DNA of 64,000 nt from a virus. A model generated the notes under the pieces. It saw only the letters and a list, made by a program, of their open reading frames with translations, was not told the DNA's origin and did no database searches. Shown in pieces: positions 22,732 to 59,286 of the stretch (position 1 is the stretch's first letter; each line of letters opens with the position of its first letter). Location of the stretch: IMG/VR virus record IMGVR_UViG_3300042924_005659, one strand, 5' to 3'. A program made the position numbers and the translations under genes.

Positions 22732-22738
22732 AGATACG

Positions 22739-42842: not shown

Positions 42843-43418
42843 TTAGCTAACTACATCAAGGAACGTAAGGAGCTCCTCGTCAGAAACACCACCGGGGACG
42901 TCTGCAGCTGCAGCCTTGTTCATTGGAGCTACTGGAACGCCAGCGGCCTCAAGACCAGAATCAAGAGCGTGGTTCATGGCAGCGAGGGAGAGCTTGATCT
43001 GACCTTCGCTAGCGTGCTTGACGTTGAGGTTGCCGACGATGGTGTCGATGAGGGCATCGACTGAAACGCCGCTGGAGACCATTGCTGCAAACTTGCCATT
43101 GAGCTGCAGAGCATGGGCAAGGTCTGACTCGGACTCAAACTGAAGACCGTGTTCGGCGCAAGCCTTTACGAACTCAGGAATGTAGTAAGTGCCAACAAAG
43201 CTCTGGAGGGCAGCGATCTTACGGGACTCGTTGTTTTGAGTATCTGACATTTGAGATTCCTTTTTGGAGTATTTTGCCTTAGCCTCAGCTAATTGCTTCT
43301 GGTAGTTTTTCTTGAAGCCTGCCGGATCGGGCTTGTCTGCACCGATGGAAACCAGGTGCTTGTACATAGCCTCGATGAATTCTGGGGAATTTGGATCTGT
43401 AGGGCCGTCTGAAAACAT
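42843..43418 (-). CDS. Putative internal head protein (K-x-A rich)
   Basis: Follows the MCP; contains KIA, KFA, KHA and KAA motifs. Confidence 0.5.
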   Translation of the reverse strand: MFSDGPTDPNSPEFIEAMYKHLVSIGADKPDPAGFKKNYQKQLAEAKAKYSKKESQMSDTQNNESRKIAALQSFVGTYYIPEFVKACAEHGLQFESESDLAHALQLNGKFAAMVSSGVSVDALIDTIVGNLNVKHASEGQIKLSLAAMNHALDSGLEAAGVPVAPMNKAAAADVPGGVSDEELLTFLDVVS

Positions 43419-43437
43419 TTTCGTATCCTTGGTAATT

Positions 43438-43465
43438 CCTACGGGGGGATTTCTCCCCCCGTAGG
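43438..43465 (-). terminator. Perfect 12-bp GAAA-loop hairpin after the major capsid gene
   Basis: CCTACGGGGGGA-GAAA-TCCCCCCGTAGG; no U-tract, so it may be a stabiliser or attenuator rather than a classic intrinsic terminator. Confidence 0.6.
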
Positions 43466-43471
43466 TGTTGC

Positions 43472-43499
43472 ATCATATCTTTGAATTATGCGAAGTCAA
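43472..43499 (-). promoter_or_regulatory. Possible promoter TTGACT-N16-TATGAT overlapping the MCP stop
   Basis: -35 at 43494-43499, -10 at 43472-43477; the start site would fall at the base of the hairpin. Confidence 0.4.
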
Positions 43500-44463
43500 C
43501 TCGGGAGACGGCTGCAGCATTTGCAATACCGCCACCAAGCATCTCGTAGGCGTACCAGGAGAGCATTGGACCTTCACGCTTGACGAACATGGTGGTGTCC
43601 TCAAGGAAGTAAAGGCGACCAAGGAACTCAGGTGCAGCAAAGAGGAACATGCTGTTGTTGGGGACGAGGTCGTCCTTAATGGTGGTGATCCAGTTGAGGC
43701 TGCACCACTTGGTTGCCTCGCCTGCCCAGCCATTGACCAGAATGTTCTGAGCCATGTCGCCACCGACTTCTTCACGAGTCCACTTCTCGAACTCGAGAGC
43801 AGTCTTCTGGTTGACAAGAGCGGTCTGAGGACGGAGGCGAGCGCCTGCGGTCATCATGAGCTTCTTGGCCTCAACGACGTTCTCACGAGTGAGACCGCCG
43901 GAGAGAGTCTTCCATAGCGTGATGTTGGTGCCGTTTGGACCGTAGGGAACTAGCTCGTTTGCGGTCATGAGGTCGTTGGAGAGCAGCGAATTGATCGTCT
44001 GGATGAACTTGCCGTCTTCCTCTGCCTGGAGATCCTTGAGCGCATTGTCGCTAATGACCTGACGGATGTCGAGATCATAGTCGTGAAGCTCCGCAACGTC
44101 CTTGTTGAACATTGGAGTTGCAATGCGGCTGAAGGTAACGAGCCAACGCTTACCGTAGATGTAGGTTCCGCTGGGGAACTCACCGAAGGGAATCGACATC
44201 GCTCCAGGTGAATCTGGCTCGAGTTCGACGACCTTGGACGGCTTATCGGTGGAGACCTGCTTGGTGAGGTCGTCGCCGGTAATGGTCTGAGCGGGGAGAA
44301 TCTTGCGGAGGAAACCCTCTTCACGAAGCTTCATGCGGATGTAATCCGACGTAGCGCGTGCAACTTTGATAGTTGACTCTGGGTTAAACTCCATCTGGTC
44401 GATGTGCTGACGAACTACTTGGTTCGCCCGCTTTTCCATATCTGAAAGATGTTCTAGTGCCAT
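43486..44463 (-). CDS. Major capsid protein (HK97 fold, encapsulin/linocin-like size)
   Basis: SDYIRMKLREEGFLRKILPAQTI...TPMFNKDVAEL...DIRQVISDNALKDLQAEEDGKFI; protease-scaffold-decoration-MCP gene order; AGGAG RBS; hairpin downstream. Confidence 0.85.
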   Translation of the reverse strand: MALEHLSDMEKRANQVVRQHIDQMEFNPESTIKVARATSDYIRMKLREEGFLRKILPAQTITGDDLTKQVSTDKPSKVVELEPDSPGAMSIPFGEFPSGTYIYGKRWLVTFSRIATPMFNKDVAELHDYDLDIRQVISDNALKDLQAEEDGKFIQTINSLLSNDLMTANELVPYGPNGTNITLWKTLSGGLTRENVVEAKKLMMTAGARLRPQTALVNQKTALEFEKWTREEVGGDMAQNILVNGWAGEATKWCSLNWITTIKDDLVPNNSMFLFAAPEFLGRLYFLEDTTMFVKREGPMLSWYAYEMLGGGIANAAAVSRVDFA

Positions 44464-44507
44464 CTGTATTTACTCCTGGGTAGGTTTAGGTTTAGGTTTA
44501 ATTTGAA

Positions 44508-45083
44508 TTAGATTGCTGGCCACCAGTTGACGTAGAAATAAACCATATTTACGCCGTACTGGTTCTTGGCTACGCCTGAAGTAGCAATACCAATGACCTG
44601 GTTGGTGTTTTGAGTGGCATTTATGGCGTAGCCGTATGCACTTGGAGTACCGGTGCTAGCAAAAGTAGCAATCTTGCCTGCTGCGGAAGTGCTAGCCATA
44701 AGTAGTTGACCTGCGGTGGGAGCACCGTCGTACTCAGTGGTACCGAGCTCGTATGCGCCGGTACCAACGAGGCAGCTAACGCCGACTTCGCCCTGAGCGA
44801 CTTGAGTAGACTTCTGAGCAGCCATGTTGCCCTGATAACGAACTGCATCGTTATCTTCGATACCGCCACGTGCAAAGAGTGGCATTGCATTACCGGTAGC
44901 TGCACCCTTTGCAAACTGGCCGCTGGTGTTAAGGTAGCCGATAGCGCCAGCAACAACACCAGTAGCGGTGGTGCCGTTATAGCCAGCAACGGGGCAAACG
45001 CGAGAAAGTTGACGCTCATCCCACCATCCACGGACGGGATCGAGCATGTTTGTGGTCATCTGAGTTAAGTTCTTGTAAGGCAT
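44508..45083 (-). CDS. Capsid decoration / cement protein
   Basis: 191 aa Gly/Ala-rich ORF directly upstream of the MCP (GAIGYLNTSG...YELGTTEYDG...GQLL), beta-tulip-like by position and composition. Confidence 0.55.
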   Translation of the reverse strand: MPYKNLTQMTTNMLDPVRGWWDERQLSRVCPVAGYNGTTATGVVAGAIGYLNTSGQFAKGAATGNAMPLFARGGIEDNDAVRYQGNMAAQKSTQVAQGEVGVSCLVGTGAYELGTTEYDGAPTAGQLLMASTSAAGKIATFASTGTPSAYGYAINATQNTNQVIGIATSGVAKNQYGVNMVYFYVNWWPAI

Positions 45084-45142
45084 TGTTTATTCTCCGAATC
45101 TTGGATTCGTATAGTGTAGAACAGAAGTTCTTTCTTTTCAAT

Positions 45143-45535
45143 TTAGCTGAGGAGAGCCTCGCACCAGGCCGACGAGGACTGGTTGCCAGGAACCGCAGCG
45201 GATTTTGCGGAAACAGAGGAAGGAACACCTACCGCAAGATTACGAGCCTGGCCCACTTCGGCCTGAAGGGCAGCAATCTTGTTGGTAAGAGACGCGATAG
45301 TCTTGAGAGCGCCATCATTTGTCATGATGTAGTTTGCGAACTCAGACTGACGAGCTGGATCAAGTCCAGCGTGTTTGACAAGGTCTGCAACCCGAGCTTC
45401 GGCTTCCTTACGAGAAACCGGGCTTGGAGTTGCAGTTGGCTGGGGTGCGGAGATAGTCGAAACCATCTCAGGCACACGCTCCATGAAAGATGCGATCTTT
45501 TCTAGCGCTTTAACTGGAATTTTAATATTACTCAC
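45143..45535 (-). CDS. Small head protein (K-x-A rich)
   Basis: 5 of 8 lysines are K-x-A. Confidence 0.55.
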   Translation of the reverse strand: MSNIKIPVKALEKIASFMERVPEMVSTISAPQPTATPSPVSRKEAEARVADLVKHAGLDPARQSEFANYIMTNDGALKTIASLTNKIAALQAEVGQARNLAVGVPSSVSAKSAAVPGNQSSSAWCEALLS

Positions 45536-47082
45536 GACTGAATCCCTTTATAGATTGAGTTAAGTTCATTGCGAAGACGGCTGGCGGAACGCAGAGTCTG
45601 GAACTTTGCGCCTGCGCGCTTTACAGCACCGTCACAAGTCTGAAGGAAAGAAACCTGAGCTGCGGAGAGCTTGGTAGGATCTACCTTACCTGCAGCAATC
45701 AGAGCAGAAGCCTTGGCGTAGGAGCGAACATCGGACTCCTTCATGCCTTCCTGTTGCATGAGTGCCATAAGAGCAGCTTCATCCTCAGGAGTCATTGGAG
45801 GCTCTTGGCCCTCAGCACCCATCATGGCAGGATCCATCATGGCGGCCATCTCGTCTGGAGCGCCACCGCCTGCTGGCATTGCAGCCATGTCCATAAGTGC
45901 TTGCTCGGCAGCAGCCTCTTCGTCAGAAGAAATTTCCTCTTCTGATTCGGGAGACTCCTCCTCGCCTTCCTCTTCCTCTTCCATCATTTCGTCTTCTGCG
46001 AGCTTACGAAAGGTGCGGCCCTTGCGGGAAGAGCCCTCCTTCTCTGCTTTAATCTCGGCTTCGAGTGCAGCAGCAGCCTTCTTTAGCTTCTTGAGCTGAG
46101 ACATCTTCTCCTCAGCGTCATCGCCTGGCTTCTTGTCTGCCCAGTCTGGAACGCCATCGCCGTCGGCATCTGGCTTCTTCTTCTCAGACTTTTCGGCAGG
46201 CTTGGCATCAGCCTGAGCGCCGGCCATAACTTCTGCAAACTTAGGAGTGCCGTCGATCTCAGCAAGAATGTCGTAAGCTGCGATCTTCTCAGCCATGCCG
46301 TGAATCTGAGCTGCGGCTGCGGCTTGCTTCTCGGCCTGAATTACTGGAAGAACGTGAGGAGCTGCAAACTTGTCCATGACAGCGGTAACAGACTGAACAA
46401 AAGACTCAGCATCACGAGCGGCTGCAGTCTTCATGTCCTCGCGCATGGACAACATGTCACGGATGGCCATCTCGCGAATTGCAGCCAACTTAGCTGCAGC
46501 GTCCTTGCCCTGCTCCTTGGTGAGAGGGATGTTGCCATCGTTATCAGCGTTTACTGGATAAGCAGCGGTGCCCTTAGCATCCTTCTTGCTGTTATCTGTT
46601 GCTTCTTGGTCTACGTTACCGGTGACGTAAGAGTCCGCCTTCTGAGAAGCCTTAACGATATTGCGAAGTTCTGCAGCAAGGCTGCGAGCCTCTGCAATAA
46701 ATGCATCAGCGGCGTTCTTACCCGAGGGGTGAGAAGAACCGGGATCGTTGTTGTCATTAAGGTTGTACTTACGCTCGACCTCTGGTGCTTCACCAGATGG
46801 GCGAACCTTTACACCCTTGTTGTGTCCAGGATCCTTCTGCTGACTACCAGCTTCAAGCTTGGTGTCGCTGTCGGTTCCGAGAGGATACATTGCCTTGTTG
46901 TCAGCGGTGTTTTCTGCGTAGCGATGACCAACAACTGCAGGAGAGGTGTGGTCGTCAGCTGCAGAGTTGCTGCCGCTGGGGTGTGACGTGTTTAGAATGC
47001 TCTCGCCTGGATTCTCAGCGCGCTTCTGAGTAAGGGCGCGAAGCTGTTCGACTAAAGCGCGGTGTTCAAAGCTAGTGGCCAT
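45532..47082 (-). CDS. Putative capsid scaffold / core protein
   Basis: Between protease and MCP; low-complexity, coiled coil, acidic run EEEEEGEEESPESEEE, DADGDG motif, many K-x-A. Confidence 0.6.
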   Translation of the reverse strand: MATSFEHRALVEQLRALTQKRAENPGESILNTSHPSGSNSAADDHTSPAVVGHRYAENTADNKAMYPLGTDSDTKLEAGSQQKDPGHNKGVKVRPSGEAPEVERKYNLNDNNDPGSSHPSGKNAADAFIAEARSLAAELRNIVKASQKADSYVTGNVDQEATDNSKKDAKGTAAYPVNADNDGNIPLTKEQGKDAAAKLAAIREMAIRDMLSMREDMKTAAARDAESFVQSVTAVMDKFAAPHVLPVIQAEKQAAAAAQIHGMAEKIAAYDILAEIDGTPKFAEVMAGAQADAKPAEKSEKKKPDADGDGVPDWADKKPGDDAEEKMSQLKKLKKAAAALEAEIKAEKEGSSRKGRTFRKLAEDEMMEEEEEGEEESPESEEEISSDEEAAAEQALMDMAAMPAGGGAPDEMAAMMDPAMMGAEGQEPPMTPEDEAALMALMQQEGMKESDVRSYAKASALIAAGKVDPTKLSAAQVSFLQTCDGAVKRAGAKFQTLRSASRLRNELNSIYKGIQS

Positions 47083-47109
47083 AATGGTGTAGTTCCTTTA
47101 CGTTTGTAT

Positions 47110-48465
47110 TTATTCTACAGTGTTCTGACAAAATCCGCAAAAAATCAAATCATCTAGGTCGCTAGCGGAGGCAGCGGACTTGATGGAGTTAAGGGTCTCA
47201 AGCTGGTAACGAATATACTCTTTTGCCCAACTTGTGTCAATGTCGGAGGATAGCTTAATTGGGTTGGACTTTCCAATTTGAGTTCCGGCAATACGACCCA
47301 TCAACGGAGTAGTGACGGATCTGTACGGGCTAATGCTGGAGCACAGCTCTGCAATCTTGCCGGAAATCTTCATAGTTGCAGGCTCATACAGCGAGCTTGA
47401 AACTAGGTCGTCCGCATTAAATTCTCGTAAGGCGTCTGCAACAGCAGATTTATTAAAATTAGCAGCCTGACTAGAACTCAACTTAGATCCCGTCATTAAT
47501 GTGTAAAATTCTGCTGGACGCAGCATTACCCCATTATCAGACAATCCACGCATTACAGAGTCTAGGTGGGTTGGGATATAGCTAGATAGTTTCTTGACAA
47601 CGGTATCGACGTCTTCCTGATTATCTAGTACGACTGGGCGCATAACGCCGTCGATGCGCTTCTCCATCTTGGAGATTTTTTCAAGAATTTTACGCTTGTC
47701 TTCTGCTGACTTAAAGCTGCAATTAAGCGTAGCCTCTATACCTTGAATATCATTTAAAGTATAGCCTAGCTCTTCAGCTAAAGCAGCACCGCCTGCAACT
47801 CCAGTAGATGCTTTCTTTAAAGTATAAGCAACTCTATCGGCAGGACGAATAACTCTAGAGATATCGAAGAAGGTAGAGCTGGGATTATCCACTCCTACTA
47901 CCTTGCCGTCATCGAGAATCTTGCCCAAAGCTTCTTTGACGTGCCAGCAGTACTCTCGGGGAGTCTTTGCCTTATTAGAGCAAATTGAGCATACGTCGTG
48001 AGCGATTTTGCAAGCCATGGAGACCGGATAGCTGCCGTTGCGCTCTAACAAAGATAGCTCTTCGGCACACTTGGAGTTGTCGAGTTCCATAAGAAGCTCG
48101 ACTCTGTCCATGTCCTCGTTGTATACGGCAGCCTTTACAACGCCGTAGCTAGGATCCATAGGCGTATTCTTATGGTGCCGGAATACCTTGGCATGGCTGA
48201 TAAAAGTGGGGTGATCTCGTTGAAGATTGGCTCGTTTCCAGCCATCGCCGTTTCTGTTAAATCCGAACTTCTCGGAAGCAGTCATGGCAATAGTGTGAAC
48301 AGCCGTCTTGTCTCTCCCTGGAGTATAGCCCTCGATCAGGCGAGAGAACATATTTGCTCTCTTCTCCTGACCAGAGTCCAGACCCTTAGATGAGAATCTA
48401 AGGATCTCGAACGGAGCGTCGCTACCGAGGTTAAAGTGATCTGGGCTGAAAGCTTTGATAAACAT
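47110..48465 (-). CDS. Prohead maturation protease (HK97 gp4/assemblin-like fold inferred) with a Cys/His insert
   Basis: NRNGDGW...FRHHKN...GVVKAAVYN...VELLMELD...VSMACKIAHDVCSICSN...YCWH; position upstream of scaffold and MCP. Confidence 0.65.
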   Translation of the reverse strand: MFIKAFSPDHFNLGSDAPFEILRFSSKGLDSGQEKRANMFSRLIEGYTPGRDKTAVHTIAMTASEKFGFNRNGDGWKRANLQRDHPTFISHAKVFRHHKNTPMDPSYGVVKAAVYNEDMDRVELLMELDNSKCAEELSLLERNGSYPVSMACKIAHDVCSICSNKAKTPREYCWHVKEALGKILDDGKVVGVDNPSSTFFDISRVIRPADRVAYTLKKASTGVAGGAALAEELGYTLNDIQGIEATLNCSFKSAEDKRKILEKISKMEKRIDGVMRPVVLDNQEDVDTVVKKLSSYIPTHLDSVMRGLSDNGVMLRPAEFYTLMTGSKLSSSQAANFNKSAVADALREFNADDLVSSSLYEPATMKISGKIAELCSSISPYRSVTTPLMGRIAGTQIGKSNPIKLSSDIDTSWAKEYIRYQLETLNSIKSAASASDLDDLIFCGFCQNTVE

Positions 48466-48474
48466 TGGAGTTAC

Positions 48475-49653
48475 TTATTGAACGGGTACGTCTCGGCCAA
48501 CAACATTTTCATATATCGTTGGCGTATCGGAGAAGAATCCTGGCTCAGCTCCTAATACAGCCGGATTGTAGCCAACTCTAGGTACTAATCCAGAGAGTGG
48601 ACCGCCGGTAGGATCTTCTGGAGCGTTAAATCCGTAATTATATAAGTTGAACAGCTGCGGAATAGTCATACCTGCAAGAGCTGCATACATTGGAGCTCTA
48701 CCGAAGCCTGAACCTTTAGGCCCTGTAGGCATTCCTCCAAAAAGGGTTGGGGCTACTGCGGCTCTTACGCCTGCAGCAGTAGGGATTCTAGATCCAGGTC
48801 GAAGCAAAGGAGTTTGCGGGTTAAATCTAGCAGTAGTAGTTACAGGCGCACCTTTTCCTTTTCCTGATCCTGATCCTGGCCGGGTGGCGGTTATATCAAC
48901 AGGAGGTGTGCTGCTACCTCTTATTAAGAGGTTTGCAGCACTTGGACTTACACCGGGACCAACCATACCTTGAGACGCCATAGCAGCACGTAATGCCGTA
49001 GGATTTGGAGTATCTACTGAAACTGGTTGACCTGCACCTGAAACTGGACGCATTGCAACTGCGCTAAGAGGAGCCTCAACGCCCTCTAATTTATTAACAG
49101 CTCCAGTACGGACTCCTAAAGATCTACTAAGTTGTAAATCTGCTGCCGCTGGAGTCATGTACATTGGAGCTCTAGGGGCATTTGGAAAGTAGCTTCTTGG
49201 ATCAAGTAAAGCTCTATTTAAAAAGCCCTTAGTTGCCCCATAAGCTCCAGCACCAGAAAGTAAAGTAGCCCCAGTACCAAAGCCGCTTTGATCGGCTCCT
49301 ACAAAAGGAACGTCTAAAAACGGAGAATAGAATCCTGCGCTCGTAGGATCTAAAAAGGCCCCCGCACCATAGCTTTGCTGAGTCTCAATTGGCCGAGCTA
49401 GAAGCTCAGGAGCTCCGCTCATGGTTCCAGTGGGTCCACTCTGCACCTGAAATGGAGTTCCAGCATCTGAGAGTAGTCCTCCGCCAGAAGGAGTTGCTCT
49501 ACCCAAATATGCCGGAGCATTCTGAGCGCCTCTTACAGCGGAGGTAATATCTTCTGAGCCAAGAGGAGCGAGCTGTTGACTCGTAAAAGTAGGATCTTCT
49601 GCTCGCTTGGTATAGGCCTGGGCAAACTTAGCTGTAAGCTGATCTACGTTCAT
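48475..49653 (-). CDS. Gly/Pro/Ala-rich putative internal or ejection protein
   Basis: N-terminal KFA and KRA motifs, low-complexity body, hydrophobic segments GATLLSGAGAYGAT and MYAALAGMTIPQLF. Confidence 0.45.
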   Translation of the reverse strand: MNVDQLTAKFAQAYTKRAEDPTFTSQQLAPLGSEDITSAVRGAQNAPAYLGRATPSGGGLLSDAGTPFQVQSGPTGTMSGAPELLARPIETQQSYGAGAFLDPTSAGFYSPFLDVPFVGADQSGFGTGATLLSGAGAYGATKGFLNRALLDPRSYFPNAPRAPMYMTPAAADLQLSRSLGVRTGAVNKLEGVEAPLSAVAMRPVSGAGQPVSVDTPNPTALRAAMASQGMVGPGVSPSAANLLIRGSSTPPVDITATRPGSGSGKGKGAPVTTTARFNPQTPLLRPGSRIPTAAGVRAAVAPTLFGGMPTGPKGSGFGRAPMYAALAGMTIPQLFNLYNYGFNAPEDPTGGPLSGLVPRVGYNPAVLGAEPGFFSDTPTIYENVVGRDVPVQ

Positions 49654-50948
49654 TATTTGCCCTTTCCGCTATCGGTAAGTCCAGTTAGCTTGGGAACCAC
49701 GGAGTATTCCTTGTGCTGCTCACGCATCTTGTCTTCCATGGCCAGCATCTGATTCAACGAGAAGTCGTCAATCTGCTCGCCAGCCTCTAGTCTACGGCGC
49801 AACATGGAACGAAGCAATGGCTCGCTACGAGTTGCGGTAGGAGCAATAGAATTAATTTCAGACAAAGCCTGTTCGATTTCCTCTGGGCGACGAGATCCAA
49901 TGATGGGATCAGTCTTCATGAGTTTGTGCAGAGTTAGAGCTTTATCGATTCGAGAAGACTGATCCACGAAGTCAGGATCGGCTAGCGTATCCAGGATTCC
50001 TCTTTGAATAGACTCGCTCGGAGTGTCGATGCCAGGATTTAACTGCCCGGCGATTGTTCCTAAGTGCCCAGTCAGATCAATCAGCGATGCTTCTTTTCTA
50101 ACGGGACGCTTAATCCCACACATATCATTGAGAAGCTGAGTGCGCTCTAAATGATTTACGTAAGCATCGTGTTCCGCCTCAGCAAGCTTGGTATTGAGCA
50201 ACCGAACCTGGTTGAAGCCTTTGACAATGGAGTCCAGCGAATCCAGTTCCTCATTACCTAAAGAGAAATAACCAATCTTATCGGCAGCAAGCTTAATGCA
50301 TTCTGCTCCGGTAATGCCAGTAGCCAAGCTAATGACATCCATTGCTTCCTTGCCATGACGCTCAAGCATTTCTCTTGCCCAATGCGTACGGCGATAGGCA
50401 GTTACGGAAGCAGTCTTTTCCTTGAAGTGGCTGATGCTCTTGGCAAGGCTTTCACAAGCCTGGTTGTATCTGTTTCTATTAGTTTCAATGGCAAGCTTTT
50501 CCTGCTTGTCCAAAGAGGCAGCACTCTTGCTCAAAACATCAAACGACGGAGCTGTAGCCTGCTTTTCAACGAATAAAAAGCTATCGTCCTGGGCAGGCTC
50601 AAAATAGTTTGCAGACTCTGATAGATAAGAAAAAGAAGCCTGTGCTGCCTTCTTATTATCTACTGAAGCAGAATTTAAAATTCTAGCAACTGCTGCCTCG
50701 CCATCTGCTAGTGGAAAAGAGTTTCCTCTTTCCTCCAATCCGGCGGACTTAAAGTAAGCCAAGTGCGCTGCACCATTGTAGGCTTCTGCTGCTCGCAGAA
50801 TATAATCATTAGGGTAGTCTCCCTGCGATGCAGCTTTTACAAGAGCGTCAGTCGGATCCAGGCCATCATTGACATAGCCGGCAGTCTTATTTACCAGCTG
50901 TACCAGGCGCTCTCTGTTATCCGAAGATATATGCTTTAAGTCGTTCAT
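49653..50948 (-). CDS. Helical internal head protein (K-x-A rich)
   Basis: 13 of 28 lysines are K-x-A by hand count. Confidence 0.55.
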   Translation of the reverse strand: MNDLKHISSDNRERLVQLVNKTAGYVNDGLDPTDALVKAASQGDYPNDYILRAAEAYNGAAHLAYFKSAGLEERGNSFPLADGEAAVARILNSASVDNKKAAQASFSYLSESANYFEPAQDDSFLFVEKQATAPSFDVLSKSAASLDKQEKLAIETNRNRYNQACESLAKSISHFKEKTASVTAYRRTHWAREMLERHGKEAMDVISLATGITGAECIKLAADKIGYFSLGNEELDSLDSIVKGFNQVRLLNTKLAEAEHDAYVNHLERTQLLNDMCGIKRPVRKEASLIDLTGHLGTIAGQLNPGIDTPSESIQRGILDTLADPDFVDQSSRIDKALTLHKLMKTDPIIGSRRPEEIEQALSEINSIAPTATRSEPLLRSMLRRRLEAGEQIDDFSLNQMLAMEDKMREQHKEYSVVPKLTGLTDSGKGK

Positions 50949-51841: not shown

Positions 51842-51851
51842 TACGTCTTAT

Positions 51852-52430
51852 TTAGTCAGGCTTTTTAGTAAATCCAGCAGTCTGCTCAATTATGCCATCT
51901 CGGAGAGCTGGATGGACAGGGCTGTGGAGAGCTTTTGCTACACTACCAAAATAGCCTAGATTTTCTGGCTCTAGCTTTTTTAGCTTCTTAGCCGTATTAA
52001 ACTCCTCAGCAATTGCCTTAATGGCTTTTCTTCTAGCTAAGGTAGTTAATAATCCCCCTCCTAATGCTCCGCCTGCAGCGCCGATGATGGCGCCAAGGTG
52101 TTTATCGCCAAGTCCTGCTCCAATGCCGTACCCGGCTGGACCTCCGATTGAAGCTCCTCCTAACGTACCAGCAAGCATGCTCAGCATTGGATACTTTACA
52201 GTCCAACTAACGTCCTCTGACGGAATGCCTGCAGCCTCAGCTAGAACTTGCGATATGTTATTTCTAACATGAGCGTGTCCGTATAGAGGCATTAAGCCTG
52301 GAACTCCATAAAGATAATCTGCTACTACGTGCCCCGGGTGGTTAGGATCTCCGAAAGGAACATCTTCTGCTTTTAGTCTTGCGGCCTGCTTTAACAGCAT
52401 AGTGTGAACATTGTTTGCAATTTTGATCAT
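51852..52430 (-). CDS. Glycine-zipper membrane-active putative ejection protein (start revised to 52430)
   Basis: The ATG at 52430 lies 4 nt after the upstream stop; MIKIA...LLKQAA; hydrophobic LAGTLGGASIGGPAGYGIGAGLG...GAIIGAAGGALGGGLL. Confidence 0.55.
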   Translation of the reverse strand: MIKIANNVHTMLLKQAARLKAEDVPFGDPNHPGHVVADYLYGVPGLMPLYGHAHVRNNISQVLAEAAGIPSEDVSWTVKYPMLSMLAGTLGGASIGGPAGYGIGAGLGDKHLGAIIGAAGGALGGGLLTTLARRKAIKAIAEEFNTAKKLKKLEPENLGYFGSVAKALHSPVHPALRDGIIEQTAGFTKKPD

Positions 52431-52434
52431 AGTA

Positions 52435-54561
52435 TTACACCAATTGGTTAAGGTCTGTTTCAACTGCAGATCCAGAGTCAGACTGAATCTTACGTTCCTT
52501 GAGCTTAAGAATCAGCTCGCCTAAGTGATTAAAGGTATTACGAACCGACTCTTCCATGCTGGGAATATCTTCCTGGCTAAAGCGCTCAGAGAACTTATCG
52601 CCATGGAAAAGCATCAGGAAGTAGATACGACCGAGTCTGTCCAAGGCCTGATTGAGATCGACCATGTACTGATCCAATGGCGTATCGATGTCGGCTCTAT
52701 TGATCAGCTCAGAGATATTGGCTACGTCAAAGACATTGCGCTCGCCTGACTGAGCAGCCTGCATGATGTTGTCGACGGCCTGCTGATTCAAGGCCGGCTG
52801 AGTCTGGTTCATGCCGCTAATACCGTCTAGGACTCTCTGATTGAGCACGTTTCCAGGGGCGCCACTCATAGCACTCATAGTGTCGGCTTGCGGATACTGT
52901 TCCGGCACACCCAAAGTTGGATTCATGCCCATTGGGACTGGGGGAGTGTTCGGATTGAAGACCATGCCAGGATCAAAGAACGGGCCTTGAGCCTTTTTCT
53001 GGAAGGTATAGCTGGCCTCCTCTAGAGCAGCCGCCTTCTTCAAGGCGTCCTTGGCCGTATCAATGCCAAATCCTACGCCGGCAACCAAAGTTACATATGC
53101 GTCCCGGCGAGTGGCCTGCTTGAACAGCAGCTTGCCATTGCAAGTGGCGGTAAATCCGCTTCTGTCCTTGGCAACCTTAATTTCATCAAAGAGACCTTTG
53201 ATCTTTGCGTCGATATCTCGAGCGTCTCCAAGATCGATCTTTGGGCAGGAGTACATCTTCGCCTTGAACGAGTGTACCTTCGCTGCCTTTGGTACATACA
53301 GCGTATTGTCGATAAGTCGCATACGGCGATACGCTGGAGACACGACGACCTTCTCCATGGGGTAGCCGCCATAGTGAATCTTGTAAGTGGTGGCGCCGTC
53401 GAACTCAACCTTATCCGTTAGACAGAAAGGTGCAGACGCTTGAGATCCATCTGCCTCTACGAAGATATTGTAGGAGACTTGCTTATCGGAAACTCCGACA
53501 GTATCAGCAGTAGTCTTGGCGGACTCAGCCGAAGACAGCCCGTCCAAGAACTTCTTGAAGGCTTCAGTTCCGCCATCAAAAGAAGAAACAAAGGTCTTTA
53601 CAGACTCTACGCAGCAAGGTGTGACTTTGTCGTTGTCGGTAGGAATGAAGACGTGCTTGTTGAAGTTGTCTACTCCAAGCTCCGGCATCATTACGCCACG
53701 TGCAAACGCTCCGCCCTTCATGAGCAGGTCGTACACGCAGGCGCCGTCCACAGCGTTAAGCTTCATTGGGCGCTGAATCTTGTAGGGAATCTTTCCTTCG
53801 CCTCTATTGTCTCGAAGGACGATGCCCTCCTCCAGTAGCTCCTGCTTCTCCGAATCAGTCATTGATTCAAATACAGGTTGAGGGCTATTGGCGTCGATGA
53901 CCTCTACCTCTGGCACCTTCTCGTTGTCGAGCTGCTCGACTTTAGCCTGCTTGCATGAGCTAAGAGCCTCATACAACTCCTCGCCATAGGCTTCAGAAGC
54001 AAGCTTGTGCAGTCTTGGATTCTGCATTAGCGTACGAGTGTAGATATCCGCCAGACGGCAGTCAGCCTGCTTTAAAAACGACGGAAACGTCCAGTCAAAG
54101 TTGACGGCCAAGCTCTGCATCTTATCCATGCTGAGCTTGGTGTTAATGGTTGGATTGTAGATTTTGCTTAGATCCAAACCTGACTGCATGCCGACCATGA
54201 CATCGCCACGGGACATGCCTGAAGGCTCTCCCAGTTCCTCTGGACGAGAGTTGAGCAGAGTGTCAACCCAGTTTTCCTTGTTGGGTACGAACTTGTCCTG
54301 ATTCTGATTGTAAAGCAGCTCAGCGCCCTTTAGCTCTCCGTTCTTGTAGAAGACAGGAACGAACAACTGACGACCAGCTACGTCAAACTTGAACAAGCCG
54401 ATGGCCTGAGTGCCTTCGTCGTTCTTGTTTACGACCTCGAAGCCAAGCATGTAGTCGAGCAAATTGGGAATCTTGTCCCGAATGTAGGCAAAAGCCAGCT
54501 GAAAGAAATTCTGCTCGAATGATGCGTCGTCCGCAAGTTTAATGAGATTCTTTCTAGGCAT
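52435..54561 (-). CDS. Large head-module protein (K-x-A rich), function unknown
   Basis: 708 aa; KLA, KQA, KLA, KQA, KVA, KQA, KKA motifs; Met/Pro/Gln-rich segment near the C-terminus. Confidence 0.55.
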   Translation of the reverse strand: MPRKNLIKLADDASFEQNFFQLAFAYIRDKIPNLLDYMLGFEVVNKNDEGTQAIGLFKFDVAGRQLFVPVFYKNGELKGAELLYNQNQDKFVPNKENWVDTLLNSRPEELGEPSGMSRGDVMVGMQSGLDLSKIYNPTINTKLSMDKMQSLAVNFDWTFPSFLKQADCRLADIYTRTLMQNPRLHKLASEAYGEELYEALSSCKQAKVEQLDNEKVPEVEVIDANSPQPVFESMTDSEKQELLEEGIVLRDNRGEGKIPYKIQRPMKLNAVDGACVYDLLMKGGAFARGVMMPELGVDNFNKHVFIPTDNDKVTPCCVESVKTFVSSFDGGTEAFKKFLDGLSSAESAKTTADTVGVSDKQVSYNIFVEADGSQASAPFCLTDKVEFDGATTYKIHYGGYPMEKVVVSPAYRRMRLIDNTLYVPKAAKVHSFKAKMYSCPKIDLGDARDIDAKIKGLFDEIKVAKDRSGFTATCNGKLLFKQATRRDAYVTLVAGVGFGIDTAKDALKKAAALEEASYTFQKKAQGPFFDPGMVFNPNTPPVPMGMNPTLGVPEQYPQADTMSAMSGAPGNVLNQRVLDGISGMNQTQPALNQQAVDNIMQAAQSGERNVFDVANISELINRADIDTPLDQYMVDLNQALDRLGRIYFLMLFHGDKFSERFSQEDIPSMEESVRNTFNHLGELILKLKERKIQSDSGSAVETDLNQLV

Positions 54562-54580
54562 GTTTATCTCGAATAGGAAT

Positions 54581-54610
54581 TTACCTGACGGGGTTTCCCC
54601 CGCCAGGTAA
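54581..54610 (-). terminator. 13-bp GAAA-loop hairpin (one G-U pair) after 54624..55208
   Basis: TTACCTGGCGGGG-GAAA-CCCCGTCAGGTAA on the minus strand; the mismatch is a G-U only in the minus-strand RNA. Confidence 0.6.
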
Positions 54611-54623
54611 GAGTAGTTAGCTA

Positions 54624-55208: not shown

Positions 55209-55300
55209 ATTATTTTCCTTTGGTAAATTGAAAGGGCCTTATTTAGACTAGTCCCAATCTACTACTAGTTTTTATTAAAACTGTCGACAGTAGGGGCAGT

Positions 55301-55828
55301 TTAAATTGCCCCTTCACCTCCAGCAGGAGCAGGTCTATTAAACCCCGGGAGGTTCTGCACGCCCTGGCCGAGGCCAAGGGCTCCAATACCCTTATTGAAA
55401 AGGCCACCAAGATAATCTATTCCGGCATCTACCTTAGCGCCACGTTCTGGGCTAGATTCGCCGTAGTACTGTAGACCACCTGCGCCAAGGCCACCAAGAC
55501 CACCACCGATGAGGCTACCCATGAGAGCAGAGCGGAGATAGCCGCGAAGACTCTTGTCCTTACCGAAAACAGCATTGGCCAACAAAGAAACGGGAAGGCC
55601 GGCAAGAGCGCCTGCGCCTGCGCCGATACCTACACCGGGACCATAGCGCTTTCCAGCTTCAAGAGCATCGCTGCCCATAGCCATAGCCTTGTCCATCATG
55701 CCGGGCTCAGCGCCACCAATCATGGGTTCCATATCCATGGTTCCCTTGTTTGCCTGCTTGTAGTGAATTAAAGTCGCCGCAATAAGAGGCTTCTTAACCT
55801 GTGCGAGTTCGTAAGCTTGTTTGATCAT
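55301..55828 (-). CDS. Glycine-zipper putative ejection / internal protein
   Basis: MIKQA...YKQA; GVGIGAGAGALAGLPVSLLANA and ALMGSLIGGGLGGLGAGGL hydrophobic helices. Confidence 0.55.
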   Translation of the reverse strand: MIKQAYELAQVKKPLIAATLIHYKQANKGTMDMEPMIGGAEPGMMDKAMAMGSDALEAGKRYGPGVGIGAGAGALAGLPVSLLANAVFGKDKSLRGYLRSALMGSLIGGGLGGLGAGGLQYYGESSPERGAKVDAGIDYLGGLFNKGIGALGLGQGVQNLPGFNRPAPAGGEGAI

Positions 55829-55851
55829 AAATGCTCCTTTTAGGTAGAAAG

Positions 55852-55860
55852 ATTATAGCA
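55852..55860 (-). promoter_or_regulatory. TGCTATAAT extended -10 promoter upstream of 55301..55828
   Basis: Exact motif in a 39-nt intergenic gap, preceded by T6 and followed by an AAGGAG RBS. Confidence 0.6.
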
Positions 55861-55867
55861 CAAAAAA

Positions 55868-57727
55868 CTAGTAAGTGCCTTTAGGGCCCTTTGAGATTTC
55901 TCCAGTAGCCAAGGCGGGAATCCAAGATGTGCCGTGGATTTGAGATGTGGATCCACGTTGCACGTTATCCAAGAATGTCTTTTTAAGGTTAAATCCTCCG
56001 AGCTGGACCATCCAGTCTCGATCTCCAATAAGTGACATCATGGCTCTCGTCATGGTTGGCTTAAATGGAGGAGGATTTTTATGCGCAACCACTTCATTGA
56101 ATCCGTTTTCTTTTAGCTCCTTAGCAACACTTGGAGTTATACGGGTTCCAATCGAATAGTGCAAAATTGGCTTCTCTAAAAAGTGATTTAGATACTTGCC
56201 TGGCTCCCCAGATACGAATCCCTGTCTGGGTTCGTAGCGAGATGCAAGATAGTCGTAGCTGACCAAATCTTCAGGATACGTGCCAGGAACTACGTCCGGC
56301 TCTGTAATTTCCACCTGATTGATAAGCCCACGAGCCACGACTTCTACGTTTCTACGATGTGCTGGCAGGCCGTTCTCTTGTAGGGCAGACTTGAACTGCT
56401 GGACAAAACGGCGTCTAGCCTCGCCAATGCCTTTTAATTCTGCCAAATCTTTAGGATTGACTATGCCGTCTGAGAGTGCATCTCCGGCTTCAATGGACTG
56501 GCCTGGCTTGACGGTTACGGCTTGATCTGTAGGCACATAGTATTTTTCATTATTTACGTGAACGTAATTACCGCCCTGTGGAGCAGGTTCGATCTTACCT
56601 ACAATGCCATCTGCAGTCGTGACAGGAGCGCCGTCAGTAAAGGTTTTTGGAACTTCTACTAATTGGTTTAAATAGTTAAATCCGGTAACACTGCGCTTAG
56701 CTTTGCCCTTTGCAACACCGCCACCGTGCTTTGAGTTAAGCATGCCTTGGCTTACAGGTTCAGCAATTGCCTGAGCGGCAGTGATGCCGACATTCATGCC
56801 GGTCTCGGCCAACTTACCGTGCTCTCTGACGCCTGCCGCCCAGCGAGGCAATCCGTTCATTGCGCTGACAGCGGCAATGGGAGAATAGATCATAAGTCTC
56901 TTTTTACCTGCTTGGGACAAAGACTTAAGAATGCTGGAGTCCAAGTATGTACCCTTCTTGAACTCTCCTTCGTCTCTAGCCAATATGGAGCCCATGTTGT
57001 CTGGGTCATCCGTATCAACCATCAGACCCTGGCCATCCTCGATATCCTCGTCTGTGACTACCAAGCGGTGAGCTGCGCCTGTAAGACGCTTGGCAAAGTA
57101 GCCTGCGTCACCTACTGCCAGTTTTACATCGATGGCGCCTGAGCGAGCACCGTAGGAGCCAGCCCAGTACTCGACCGGATCTACGCCCTCGGAGTAAGAA
57201 TTGACGACTGGGATTGGAACCGGGCGACCCTTGTTGTCGCTATACATCAAGTCGGTGCCAATCATGGAAGACAACTGATTCTTGTTTCCACGGGCGCCTG
57301 CGTAAACCTGCATGGCAAAGGGATTCTCGGACTTCAAGGCCTCGTCGTACACCGAGTCAACCAGGTTGTCCTGGTACTTCAAGGTCGCATCTACAATCGC
57401 GGCGTCTCTCTGCTCGGGATCCTTTACGGTGCGTAATATGGTTCGAACGTCCTTTTTAAGAGCGTCGGTGATCTTGCTCTTGGCCTTGGTAGGCTTGAGG
57501 CTTTCCAAGGTAAAGCTGGATAGAGGCGACTGTCTTGCGCTCTTTAGACCAATTAGAGTCAGCTTCTGCACCATGTCCTTGTAGTCATCTGGCTTCATTG
57601 AAGTAGCCATCTGAGTAAGGAACTTGCGCATAGAGGACTTGTCCCAGACTCGAGCGTGGTCTCGGTGTTCCTCGGGAAGCGATGAATTGATGAGCAGTTG
57701 ACCTACTGTGGTTATCGATGGTTCCAT
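55868..57727 (-). CDS. rpoC: DNA-directed RNA polymerase beta-prime subunit, C-terminal half (split rpoC; bridge helix and trigger loop; no NADFDGD)
   Basis: TTVGQLLINSSLP; GARGNKNQL; bridge helix YWAGSYGARSGAIDVKLAVGDAGYFAKRL; trigger loop GITAAQAIAEPVSQGMLNSKHGGG; TGFNYLNQLVEVPK; SBHM VKPGQSIEAGDALSDGIVNPKDL; RRNVEVVARGL. Probable start MEPSITT at 57727 (track start 57751). Confidence 0.9.
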   Translation of the reverse strand: MEPSITTVGQLLINSSLPEEHRDHARVWDKSSMRKFLTQMATSMKPDDYKDMVQKLTLIGLKSARQSPLSSFTLESLKPTKAKSKITDALKKDVRTILRTVKDPEQRDAAIVDATLKYQDNLVDSVYDEALKSENPFAMQVYAGARGNKNQLSSMIGTDLMYSDNKGRPVPIPVVNSYSEGVDPVEYWAGSYGARSGAIDVKLAVGDAGYFAKRLTGAAHRLVVTDEDIEDGQGLMVDTDDPDNMGSILARDEGEFKKGTYLDSSILKSLSQAGKKRLMIYSPIAAVSAMNGLPRWAAGVREHGKLAETGMNVGITAAQAIAEPVSQGMLNSKHGGGVAKGKAKRSVTGFNYLNQLVEVPKTFTDGAPVTTADGIVGKIEPAPQGGNYVHVNNEKYYVPTDQAVTVKPGQSIEAGDALSDGIVNPKDLAELKGIGEARRRFVQQFKSALQENGLPAHRRNVEVVARGLINQVEITEPDVVPGTYPEDLVSYDYLASRYEPRQGFVSGEPGKYLNHFLEKPILHYSIGTRITPSVAKELKENGFNEVVAHKNPPPFKPTMTRAMMSLIGDRDWMVQLGGFNLKKTFLDNVQRGSTSQIHGTSWIPALATGEISKGPKGTY

Positions 57728-58602
57728 GGCGTGAGTACCTCGCTGCCACACTGAGTCTTGATTACCTTGTAATGAGAGTATGGCGCAGCAAGAGCCAAAG
57801 AACTCTGCTTGCCAAACACTCCGGACATATCAGGGCCAAACCAGTCTATGGCTTTATTGGCAATAAACTCGTAGCCAGGCATTCTGGAGCCCATACCTAA
57901 TAAGAATTGTCCAAGTCCTCGCAACTGTCTACCGAAGCTACCCATGCCGGAAGTCCAGTCATCGATCTTATTGGACATATGCGTAGTGGCAGCATTTGCC
58001 ATTAAAGATCTAACCAACGGAGAGTTTCTATCCAAGCTACCCATGATAGCTTGTGGCATCTGGCTAAACTGCTGATTTGCAGCGCTTTGCCCTACTACTG
58101 TTCCTAGCTGTGCTCCAGATCGCAATCCAAATGGATCCCATTGCCCGCTAGCCGTAGTGGCAAAAGGATTGGCATTTAGTCTAGTTGCACCTGCCGCTAC
58201 TCCCTGGAGAGTTGGTCCCGCTCCAAGTCTTGCAGCATTGGTGTATCCGCCTACTGCTTGGACTGGATCTATACCTTGCAGCAATTGACCTGCGTATGGG
58301 CTGAAGTTACCAGAAGCAAATCCTCTAACTGCTGCAGGATCCTGAGACATCTGCAGTGCTCTTTGCCCCAAGGAGCTAAGTCCTTGCATGTACTCAGGAC
58401 TGAATCCCCGGGTTTTAATTGCTTGATTGTATTCCGCAGATCCTGGTCTTAAATGGCCATAGGCCTGCAGATCCTTGGATAGAGCAGAGCCCCAAGCCTG
58501 AGTATCAGTAGGAGATACATTAGGAGGCATAAGACTGCCTTGAAAGGCAGGCGGAGTGTAGGCTTGCTTTATTAGAAATTGTTTAAGCAGGGGATCCATC
58601 AC
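57712..58602 (-). CDS. Gly/Ala/Gln-rich putative internal or ejection protein
   Basis: LLKQFLIKQAY start; low-complexity body; amphipathic C-terminal helices. Confidence 0.45.
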   Translation of the reverse strand: MMDPLLKQFLIKQAYTPPAFQGSLMPPNVSPTDTQAWGSALSKDLQAYGHLRPGSAEYNQAIKTRGFSPEYMQGLSSLGQRALQMSQDPAAVRGFASGNFSPYAGQLLQGIDPVQAVGGYTNAARLGAGPTLQGVAAGATRLNANPFATTASGQWDPFGLRSGAQLGTVVGQSAANQQFSQMPQAIMGSLDRNSPLVRSLMANAATTHMSNKIDDWTSGMGSFGRQLRGLGQFLLGMGSRMPGYEFIANKAIDWFGPDMSGVFGKQSSLALAAPYSHYKVIKTQCGSEVLTPWNHR

Positions 58603-58831
58603 GTAAGTCCATTTTGTGCAGAGCTACCTGCTCCGGAGTCATTCCTGTAATCTGCTGTACTTCCTTGGCAAAATCCGGCAAACCTAAATGCGTAAATTTA
58701 TAGGTGCCGGCTGCAGTCTCGGTAACAGCAAACACTACTCTGTCTTGGTCGTCGTAAATCAAAATCGAAGCCAGTTCTTTTTCATACTTGGCCGGAATCA
58801 GAACGTTTCGTTTTTGAGTACGTGCTCTCAT
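58583..58831 (-). CDS. Small hypothetical protein
   Basis: 82 aa in-operon ORF overlapping its neighbours. Confidence 0.5.
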   Translation of the reverse strand: MRARTQKRNVLIPAKYEKELASILIYDDQDRVVFAVTETAAGTYKFTHLGLPDFAKEVQQITGMTPEQVALHKMDLRDGSPA

Positions 58832-59286
58832 CAGCGCAGTAGATCCGTTATTGATCGCATCAAAACAGTAAAGTCTTCCGACTCATCAGATGCCTGAGCA
58901 ACCATACCTGGCGGAGGAGCTGCAGGCAAACCCATTGCGGCGGGATCCATCATGGCAGGATCCATTGGAGGCATAGGCGCAGGAGCAGGCATTCCAGCAG
59001 GAGCCATTGCCTGCATCATGGCTACCTGAGCGTCCATGACTTGTTGCAGCATTGCTTTGATATTGGAGATTTCTCCAACGATATCCATTGGTGGAGGCAT
59101 ACCCCCAGCCATAGCGGGATCCATTGGTGGAGGCATACCCCCAGCCATAGCGGGATCCATTGGTGGAGGCATACCCCCAGCCATAGCGGGATCCATTGGT
59201 GGGGCGGGCATAGGAGGCATTTGCCCACCTGGGGCAGCTACCACAGCCTTTTTGGAAGAAAAAAGTTCTAGATATGGATCGACCAT
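58831..59286 (-). CDS. Met/Pro-rich low-complexity protein with a central coiled coil
   Basis: (PPPMDPAMAGGM)x3, then IVGEISNIKAMLQQVMDAQVAMMQ, then more MDPAM motifs. Confidence 0.6.
   Translation of the reverse strand: MVDPYLELFSSKKAVVAAPGGQMPPMPAPPMDPAMAGGMPPPMDPAMAGGMPPPMDPAMAGGMPPPMDIVGEISNIKAMLQQVMDAQVAMMQAMAPAGMPAPAPMPPMDPAMMDPAAMGLPAAPPPGMVAQASDESEDFTVLMRSITDLLR
59083..59202. repeat. Perfect 36-bp tandem repeat, 3 copies plus 12 nt
   Basis: ATCCATTGGTGGAGGCATACCCCCAGCCATAGCGGG at 59083, 59119 and 59155, partial at 59191; in-frame coding. Confidence 0.95.

Follow-up and report, generated by a model that had tools for sequence, protein, structure and literature searches.

What does the maturation protease of a large myophage read when it processes the phage head? 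The question is raised by a 64,000-nucleotide stretch of viral DNA (IMG/VR record IMGVR_UViG_3300042924_005659), here called the window, in which we concentrated on 42843..59286. This segment is the head module of a large myophage and encodes a predicted prohead protease (47110..48465). An earlier note on this DNA had counted lysines followed by alanine at +2 (K-x-A) in several head proteins and proposed that the protease has a K-x-A-based specificity. Judging from sequence patterns, we put at about 0.75 the probability that φ-x-K-x-A↓(S/A) (φ, hydrophobic; arrow, proposed scissile bond) is a cleavage code read by the phage's own assemblin-fold protease, serving self-release, degradation of scaffold and core proteins, and propeptide removal.

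Lys-x-Ala enrichment in the head module

The open reading frames (ORFs) that carry the signal, with one internal control, are as follows.

47110..48465, minus strand: predicted prohead (capsid-maturation) serine protease, 451 amino acids, with an N-terminal propeptide, a core (residues 51-207) and a helical C-terminal part; 12 K-x-A
45532..47082, minus strand: scaffold-like Ala/Lys/Glu-rich protein, 516 amino acids, between the protease and capsid genes; 15 K-x-A
45143..45535, minus strand: small head-module protein, 130 amino acids; 5 K-x-A
49653..50948, minus strand: putative all-helical core or internal head protein, 431 amino acids, ortholog of virion protein gp220 of Salmonella phage Arash; 13 K-x-A
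52435..54561, minus strand: conserved head-module protein, 708 amino acids, ortholog of the abundant Arash virion protein gp218; 12 K-x-A
Genome contig 21575..22921, plus strand, about 4.7 kb upstream of window base 1: further K-x-A-rich ORF, 448 amino acids, near the large terminase gene; 16 sites against 4.7 expected
55868..57751, minus strand: C-terminal half of RNA polymerase (RNAP) beta-prime (Pfam RNA_pol_Rpb1_5, E 2e-21); non-enriched control

Expected counts were corrected for composition by shuffling each protein, and a second test scanned all 400 a-x-b residue pairs. In the scan of the head module, K-x-A was the only outlier (82 occurrences against 36.8 expected, z 7.5; the next pair had z 3.4). 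The remaining 41 ORFs of the window, used as the non-head control, were at expectation (56 against 56.7), and the tail-side ORFs were all at background. The enrichment suspected by the earlier note therefore survives correction for composition and sets the head module apart from the rest of the window.

By individual protein, K-x-A accounts for 12 of the 34 lysines of the protease (12 against 2.9 in shuffles, z 6.0), 13 of 28 in 49653..50948 (13 against 3.1, z 6.3), 12 of 52 in 52435..54561 (12 against 4.1, z 4.2), 5 of 8 in 45143..45535 (5 against 1.4, z 3.5) and 15 of 44 in the scaffold-like protein (15 against 7.8, z 3.0). The counts made earlier by hand (13/28, 12/34 and 5/8) were reproduced exactly, and the RNAP fragment is near background as had been stated (4 against 3.8). 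A count of 2/30 for the tail sheath could not be matched to any ORF with exactly 30 lysines; 27129..30005 and 16942..18558, each with 31 Lys, come closest (2 and 3 sites, respectively). The enrichment is real and far beyond chance.

The signal is specific in offset and in both residues. Alanines at +1, +2 and +3 from lysine number 4, 12 and 1 in the protease, 3, 13 and 3 in 49653..50948, and 4, 12 and 5 in 52435..54561. Because +1 and +3 are at background in these three proteins, the signal is tied to the +2 offset. Among K-x-Z pairs only Ala is enriched (2.53-fold; Ser 0.90, Gly 0.79), and among Z-x-A pairs only Lys (Arg 0.88), with V-x-A (0.90), L-x-A (0.87) and I-x-A (0.84) at or under expectation. 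A general basic-x-small motif is ruled out by the ratios for R-x-A, K-x-S and K-x-G. No x-x-E pair was enriched in the 400-pair scan of the head module, so the enriched pair, which ends in Ala, does differ from Glu-ending motifs as had been claimed. At the DNA level, the coding frame of the five enriched genes contains 57 copies of AAR-NNN-GCN, compared with 1 and 3 in the two remaining sense frames and 20 on the antisense strand; codon usage does not differ between motifs and the surrounding sequence. The frame specificity and the normal codon usage indicate a peptide-level signal and rule out a DNA-level motif.

The method was calibrated on phage T4. In gp67, gp68, gp21 and gp22, I-x-E (15 against 5.9) and L-x-E (16 against 7.0) were the top two of the 400 pairs, which recovers the known gp21 code; the blind pair scan found nothing in the T4 tail proteins. 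The K-x-A signal is stronger than that of T4.

Flanking preferences were derived from 2,258 sites in 201 sequences of four enriched families. P5 is hydrophobic (F 3.3-fold, L 2.3-fold, charged residues depleted), P4 favors E, V, I and T, and G, P, N and D are disfavored at P2. Directly after Ala, Ser (2.65-fold), Ala (2.1-fold) or Glu is preferred, and L, I, V and P are avoided. The favored positions alternate (P5, P3, P1) and precede a small P1', in keeping with a protease substrate that binds as a beta strand.

Sites are also concentrated near N-termini. K-x-A occurs within the first 40 residues of 11/17 head-module ORFs and 8/41 other ORFs (p 0.0017), a pattern that fits short N-terminal propeptides. 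The N-terminal sites reported earlier are all present, namely KRA 11-13 and KVA 33-35 of the major capsid protein, KFA 9-11 and KRA 16-18 of the ORF starting at 48475, KIA and KQA of 51852, two KQA of 55301, and KQA of 57712. A lone N-terminal K-x-A is not diagnostic of head cargo. The suggestion that the motif labels packaged ORFs thus holds, statistically, for proteins with many sites and fails for those with a single N-terminal one. The ORF near the terminase gene is likely a further protease substrate, encoded away from the head module. No match to it, to 49653..50948 or to 52435..54561 was found in Pfam, PHROGs or Atlas, and a BFVD fold search was uninformative.

The protease, its predicted sites and the capsid protein

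The features discussed in this section are as follows.

47845..48315, minus strand: catalytic core of the protease, residues 51-207, set by the range of the fold match and the invariant columns
48355..48363, minus strand: K35-R-A37, predicted N-terminal autoprocessing site, in a segment (34-36) with predicted local distance difference test (pLDDT) <50 just before the core
47809..47817, minus strand: K217-K-A219, predicted autoprocessing site between the core and the helical C-terminal part, in a linker (213-223) with pLDDT<50
50829..50837, minus strand: K38-A-A40↓S41 of the helical protein, candidate for a fixed N-terminal processing site
43486..44463, minus strand: major capsid protein, HK97 fold family, 325 amino acids (PHROG major head protein, E 1e-5)
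44359..44367, minus strand: K33-V-A35, candidate maturation site of the capsid protein, in the register of the phage G cut
44425..44433, minus strand: K11-R-A13 (M-E-K-R-A↓N), second candidate propeptide site of the capsid protein

The protease gene sits with the scaffold-like and major capsid genes, the placement typical of assemblin-type proteases, and its catalytic domain is modeled as a beta-barrel assemblin fold. His98 (48172..48174) and Ser149 (48019..48021, in P-V-S-M-A-C, the "VSMAC" of the earlier note) are invariant in a 53-sequence alignment that reaches down to 26% identity. This invariance and the His-then-Ser order suggest that they are the catalytic pair, with a spacing like that of T4 gp21. 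The protein matches PHROG 18299 ("head maturation protease", E 5.9e-5) and PHROG 2774 (E 1.3e-13). No Pfam family was matched at E ≤ 0.01 (no S77, S78 or S21), and the family profile found no sequence match in the PDB; the protease therefore belongs to a distinct sequence family within the assemblin fold.

Two of its K-x-A sites stand out. K35 is invariant and A37 at least 90% conserved in the 53-sequence alignment, and the K35-R-A37 site is found in 93 to 100% of 109 homologs. In about 100% of the same homologs, a K-x-A lies at most one residue from positions 217-219. In the predicted structure both sites fall in disordered linkers flanking the core, the layout predicted for self-release. The catalytic domain itself contains seven K-x-A sites.

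The helical protein 49653..50948 has a comparable fixed site. The alignment of its family (about 20% identity) has only six invariant columns, K38 and A40 among them, and the K38-A-A40 site is present in 100% of 40 distant homologs. The AlphaFold model is all alpha, with long helices and disordered linkers at 98-130, 283-309 and 417-431; 4 of the 13 sites lie in or at linkers, several at helix ends and the rest inside predicted helices. The Arash ortholog, gp220, was detected in virions (PMC10585845). By analogy, 49653..50948 resembles a scaffold or core protein that is cut to small pieces, as T4 gp22 is. For 45532..47082, we infer a scaffold role from its position and composition.

The capsid protein is homologous to gp27 of phage G (PDB 6wkk, the only solved relative) and to Arash gp226. 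N-terminal sequencing showed that gp27 matures from 282 amino acids (31.2 kDa) to 255 amino acids (28.2 kDa) (Hua 2017, Table 1; PMC5646251). When we recomputed the masses, a cut after Ala27 (R-V-A-L-A↓Q-A-M) gave 31.19 and 28.17 kDa, and neighboring bonds misfit. In the alignment, K33-V-A35↓R36 of the window corresponds to A25-L-A27↓Q28 of phage G, both 10 residues before a conserved N-arm Arg. All 25 distinct distant capsid homologs have a K-x-A 11 residues before this Arg, one residue off, and the capsid proteins of Arash and Vibrio phage D69 read K-E-A↓G at the homologous N-arm position. The phage G register supports a cut after Ala at this capsid position; phage G has Ala at P3, so the register does not show Lys at P3. 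The upstream K11-R-A13 is unchanged across the window and its five close relatives; its hydrophobic P5 and Glu at P4 match the extended consensus. Going by the sequences, the mature N-terminus could be N14, R36, or both in turn.

Relatives and selection on the motif

Distant protease homologs occur in Salmonella phage Arash, Vibrio phages D69, D148 and D181, phage G (gp19) and Bxz1-type mycobacteriophages. In Arash gp218-225, K-x-A was the top of the 400 pairs (44 against 19.7), with L-x-K second, and it was also the top pair in the head module of Vibrio D69 (47 against 18.5) and in the protease fusion of mycobacteriophage I3 (18 against 8.1). Phage G gp19 is 34% identical to the window protease over 181 amino acids and has 8 K-x-A against 2.4 expected. 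The phage G head module has a weaker excess (20 against 10.8), in which K-x-A is the third-ranked pair.

The pattern is equally visible in larger sets. Across 120 protease homologs, from 99% to about 30% identity, K-x-A was 3.5- to 4-fold enriched in every identity tier and R-x-A was flat. We also scanned all ORFs within 10 kb of the protease in 75 metagenomic viral loci whose proteases are 27 to 45% identical to that of the window. K-x-A was the top pair in 57/75 loci and ranked 2nd to 7th in the rest, mostly behind low-complexity repeats. Our greedy longest-ORF calling picks antisense ORFs in GC-rich DNA, so the counts per locus are diluted across the 75 loci.

Separated by family, the K-x-A excess was 3.0-fold in the protease, 2.6-fold in the family of 49653..50948 (709 against 276, 57 loci), 2.3-fold in that of 52435..54561 (726 against 310, 71 loci) and 1.9-fold in the scaffold family (306 against 159, 30 loci). 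The capsid (1.05), decoration (0.58), 50945 (0.70) and RNAP beta-prime (0.81, 61 loci) families were not enriched. The ratios of 0.6 to 0.8 in the decoration, 50945 and RNAP families are not exceptional in rank. The low value of the decoration family (0.58 to 0.60) fits an outer-shell protein beyond the reach of the protease, although this depletion is not statistically exceptional.

The window's own genome is represented by a 91.9-kb contig, a fragment of the virus record; the genome of a relative (G001) is complete, at 183,468 bp, and has terminal repeats. G001 has a GC content of 66%, compared with about 49% for the window, yet the two proteases are 71% and the capsid proteins 88% identical. 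This shift in base composition is unusually large for close relatives and presumably tracks different hosts. Only 3 of 621 G001 ORFs, called in all frames, had a K-x-A excess at p<1e-3, and these are the orthologs of the protease, of 52435..54561 (15 against 3.6) and of the terminase-proximal ORF (14 against 4.6). The scaffold-like ortholog has 14 against 6.3.

The motif residues are under purifying selection, judging from alignments. In five orthologs (55 to 89% identity), motif Lys was invariant at 40/57 positions and other Lys at 39/109 (odds ratio 4.2, p 4e-5), and motif Ala at 33/57 compared with 71/198 for other Ala (p 0.004). In the small protein 45143..45535, the same comparison gives 4/5 motif Lys and 0/3 other Lys. 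Between the window and G001, 64/81 motif Lys were kept and 5 changed to Arg, whereas 103/195 other Lys were kept and 38 changed to Arg (p 4e-5). The expectation of the earlier note that K-x-A would be conserved in diverged homologs is thus borne out, both by its rank in distant relatives and by the greater conservation of its residues over other Lys and Ala.

Conservation acts on site number more than on site position. The family of 49653..50948 has 12.4 +/- 1.8 sites per protein, the scaffold family 10.0 +/- 1.6 and the third substrate family 10.4 +/- 2.3. In all three, the number is steady while most positions turn over and a few are fixed. Such behavior would be expected if many sites were "degrade me" signals and a few were defined processing sites.

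The proposed code, its rivals and the rest of the module

In the mechanism that we propose, K-x-A would be the core of the recognition motif of the protease, which has the fold of T4 gp21 and herpesvirus assemblin. The substrate would bind as an extended strand and be cut after Ala, with Lys at P3 and Ala at P1; the fuller consensus would be hydrophobic (P5), E/V/I/T (P4), K, x (not G/P/N/D), A↓S/A/E. Inside the procapsid, the protease would free its core at K35-R-A37 and K217-K-A219 and then degrade itself at further sites. It would also chop the scaffold-like protein, 49653..50948, 52435..54561, 45143..45535 and the product of the terminase-proximal ORF, with some 10 to 15 cuts per scaffold or core protein, and the fragments would leave or rearrange. 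The capsid protein would lose a short N-terminal propeptide at A35↓R36 and/or A13↓N14, as several small head proteins probably would. What the analysis shows directly is the statistics, the conservation, the fold and the homology to the phage G cut; from these we infer cleavage of the motif, the exact scissile bond and the fate of the fragments.

Several points weigh against this reading. The cuts at K-x-A are predictions from sequence, and the virion proteome of Arash gives coverage only, with no termini (PMC10585845). The sole experimental site, A-L-A↓Q of phage G, has Ala rather than Lys at P3, and the phage G capsid protein is without any K-x-A. Three of the five close relatives have K-V-S in place of K33-V-A35 and retain just the upstream K11-R-A13, which may therefore be the site used in the subclade of the window. 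The mature capsid body has 10 K-x-A against 34.2 expected, an avoidance that is only suggestive, given that, of 194 pairs, five others show as strong a depletion. In the scaffold-like protein, which is rich in Ala, the counts of Ala at +1, +2 and +3 from Lys are 6, 15 and 15; K+3A is as frequent as K+2A, so part of the excess reflects the composition of Ala runs, and the signal of this protein is partly compositional. In the model of the helical cargo protein, many K-x-A lie inside predicted helices and not in linkers. Finally, the sequences in the large comparisons are phylogenetically related, so that pooled p-values overstate their independence. The K-x-A specificity put forward in the earlier note thus gains from the specificity of the signal, its replication in relatives, purifying selection, the linker sites, the phage G register and the T4 control, and loses from the Ala at P3 in phage G.

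The protease might instead read the motif and cut at another bond, either after Lys (K↓x-A) or after the residue that follows Ala. HK97-type capsid proteases cut after Lys (gp4 after Lys103), Lys is the more strictly specified residue here and resists change to Arg, and the phage G cut derives from a published mature length and not from a printed N-terminal sequence. We regard this as unlikely, since the published masses and lengths of phage G gp27 are explained by a cut after Ala27 and by none of the adjacent bonds, Ala27 is in register with A35, the fold relatives have their defining residue at P1 and a second one at P3 (T4 L/I-x-E↓, phiKZ S/A/G-x-E↓, herpesvirus V/L-x-A↓S), and Ser and Ala are over-represented at P1', as they are at the sites of assemblins. 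Somewhat less probable still is that K-x-A remains uncleaved and serves in docking or targeting, for instance to the inner face of the shell, to the portal or to an exosite of the protease. Such a motif would mark co-assembling head proteins, as the enrichment does, and could lie inside predicted helices, as many sites of the cargo protein do; T4, moreover, has a short N-terminal capsid-targeting sequence. For docking, however, there would be no need of 10 to 15 copies per protein at shifting positions, nor would seven copies be expected inside the catalytic domain of the protease. The best-conserved sites occupy disordered linkers where domains meet, the capsid site falls on the measured phage G cut, and the T4 control shows the same statistical signature arising from a cleavage code.

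The strict requirement for Lys and not Arg would suit chemistry directed at the Lys itself, such as methylation, acylation or isopeptide cross-linking by another enzyme; alternatively, a host protease could read the motif. We consider both improbable: no candidate modifying enzyme was seen in the module, and the phage protease is the most enriched protein of all. The motif also goes with the phage protease family in hosts ranging from Mycobacterium and Bacillus/Lysinibacillus to Vibrio and Salmonella, which argues against a host factor. The least probable of these readings, to which we give almost no weight, is that the enrichment arises artificially from composition, low complexity, helical periodicity or a DNA-level motif. 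The equal frequency of K+3A and K+2A in the scaffold-like protein and the antisense mis-picks of the ORF caller in GC-rich loci would speak for it. Against it, shuffles gave z of 4 to 6, the +1 and +3 offsets were at background, K-x-A was the sole outlier of 400 pairs, the codon pattern was frame-specific, and the signal persists at 66% GC in G001; ORF-calling errors dilute the signal and do not create it. An artefact of composition, offset or low complexity was accordingly rejected for the protease, 49653..50948 and 52435..54561.

A Lys-x-Ala cleavage code can be compared with the few experimentally determined rules for maturation proteases (T4 L/I-x-E, phiKZ/SPN3US S/A/G-x-E, HK97 after Lys, herpesvirus V/L-x-A↓S), among which it would be a new specificity within the same fold. 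With T4 gp21 (PDB 5jbl; MEROPS S77) the window system shares a protease gene adjoining scaffold and capsid genes, a short P3-x-P1 motif whose excess in the scaffold, core and protease has no counterpart in tail proteins, and, by prediction, self-processing and removal of N-terminal propeptides; the T4 program compared comprises gp22, gp67, gp68, gp23, gp24 and the internal proteins. It differs from T4 in having K-x-A instead of L/I-x-E, so that P1 would be small and neutral, not acidic, and P3 basic, not hydrophobic. The window protein is also 451 amino acids long; its C-terminal part is long and helical, a Cys/His cluster follows the presumed catalytic Ser, and there is no Pfam S77 match.

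The herpesvirus assemblins (MEROPS S21; varicella-zoster virus (VZV) protease, PDB 1vzv) follow the rule (V/L/I)-x-A↓S. The predicted P1 Ala and small P1' would resemble theirs, whereas here P3 would be Lys and not hydrophobic, the hydrophobic preference is at P5, and each substrate has many sites, not two. The proteins here are those of a phage, with no detectable sequence similarity to the herpesvirus enzymes. The HK97 protease gp4 (MEROPS S78) cuts the capsid protein gp5 after Lys103. In both systems an assemblin-fold phage protease would trim the N-terminal part of an HK97-fold capsid protein, at a site containing Lys. That Lys is P1 in HK97 and most likely P3 here; HK97 removes a delta domain of about 100 residues, compared with a predicted capsid propeptide of 13 to 35 residues and a separate scaffold in the window, and the window protease has no Pfam S78 match.

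The prohead proteases of phiKZ (gp175) and SPN3US (gp245) use an S/A/G-x-E motif (PMC3323674, PMC10052503). Like the window phage, these are large myophages with a multisubunit RNAP gene in the head module and with the motif in many head and internal proteins, several sites being possible per propeptide. SPN3US also prefers Ser at P1', as the window families do. The differences are P1 Ala instead of Glu, P3 Lys instead of a small residue, and cleavage that was demonstrated by mass spectrometry there and is predicted from sequence here. Phage G is closer, with gp19 and gp27 homologous to the protease and capsid protein and gp19 rich in K-x-A; it differs in its capsid site and in its weaker module-wide enrichment. 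Felix O1 was considered for comparison and is irrelevant, having an S49 protease. On its sequence pattern, the window system would work like T4 and phiKZ maturation but fails to have Glu at P1, and it would have a herpesvirus-like P1 Ala and small P1' without the hydrophobic P3.

It is possible, though we would stop a little short of an even bet, that K-x-A↓ is the shared code of the whole gp19/Bxz1-type branch of assemblin-fold proteases, with an Ala-specific S1 pocket linking the phage enzymes to the herpesvirus A↓S rule. Members of the branch include hundreds of uncultured phages (120 to 230 kb) as well as cultured ones infecting Salmonella, Vibrio, Bacillus/Lysinibacillus and Mycobacterium. 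If the code held throughout, mature termini, protease-trimmed cargo and scaffold or core proteins that self-destruct could be predicted from the motif alone. A code common to this large, mostly uncultured group, whose head genes are barely annotated, would make it possible to predict from sequence the mature capsid N-terminus and the self-release points of the protease, and to tell head proteins built for degradation (scaffold, core) from those kept intact (RNAP subunit, decoration). It would be directly testable in cultured members (Arash, Vibrio phage D69, phage G and the Bxz1-type mycobacteriophages), and the combination of Ala at P1 and a small P1' is relevant to the evolution of substrate specificity between the assemblins of phages and herpesviruses. 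Among the papers searched, we found none pairing a K-x-A motif with prohead proteases and no second experimental terminus for Bxz1-type phages, and the multi-omics paper on phage G gives no cleavage sites.

The protease family has further features of its own. After the strand of the presumed catalytic Ser (47938..47994, residues ~158-176) there are three invariant cysteines, Cys159, Cys162 and Cys173, forming a Cys159-x2-Cys162...Cys173-x-His175 cluster, and the family consensus has one further Cys. The cluster looks like a small metal-binding insert; to our knowledge, T4 gp21 and the herpesvirus assemblins have nothing comparable. In Bxz1-type phages, the protease domain is the N-terminus of a 1,408-amino-acid protein (I3 gp103, L084:11839-16065; PHROG 2774), in which the protease is joined to a long polypeptide that is probably scaffold- or cargo-like. 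Two homologs (P0060 and P0067) are 716 to 727 amino acids long and contain the Hint/intein Pfam domains PF07591, PF13403 and PF14890, so that some genes of the family appear to be interrupted by inteins.

The other head-module ORFs considered are as follows.

44508..45083, minus strand: decoration-like protein, with a weak match to the XM1 gp53 minor capsid protein
48475..49653, minus strand: head-module protein with K-x-A at 9-11 and 16-18, candidate short propeptide; part of the N-terminal clustering test
51852..52463, minus strand: small head-module protein with K-x-A at 14-16 and 25-27; part of the N-terminal clustering, weak alone
55301..55828, minus strand: small head-module protein with K-Q-A at 3-5 and 24-26
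57712..58602, minus strand: head-module protein with K-Q-A at 12-14; single site, weak alone
58831..59286, minus strand: small protein with K-K-A at 12-14; single site, weak alone

In 48475..49653, the motif lysines K9, K16 and K267 are all conserved in the only ortholog found. Both motif lysines of 55301..55828 are conserved in three orthologs, compared with 2/9 other lysines.

All long ORFs of the window are on the minus strand. In that direction the module reads RNAP beta-prime half, unannotated proteins, protease, scaffold-like protein, 45143..45535, decoration-like protein and capsid protein, and the order from protease to capsid (protease, scaffold-like, small, decoration-like, capsid) also occurs in Arash, D69 and phage G. 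A homolog of the Arash portal protein was not found in the 91.9-kb contig. The RNAP beta-prime half lies inside the head module. In Arash virions, the beta and beta-prime RNAP subunits (gp206 and gp216) are among the most abundant proteins detected (PMC10585845), which by analogy suggests a virion-packaged RNA polymerase, as in phiKZ-like phages. Outside the head module, the window encodes baseplate, fiber and other virion proteins. Adjoining the head module, 59325..63998 encodes a very large protein (>1,450 amino acids, running past the window end) that starts with RCC1-like repeats (Pfam RCC1_2, E 8e-35).

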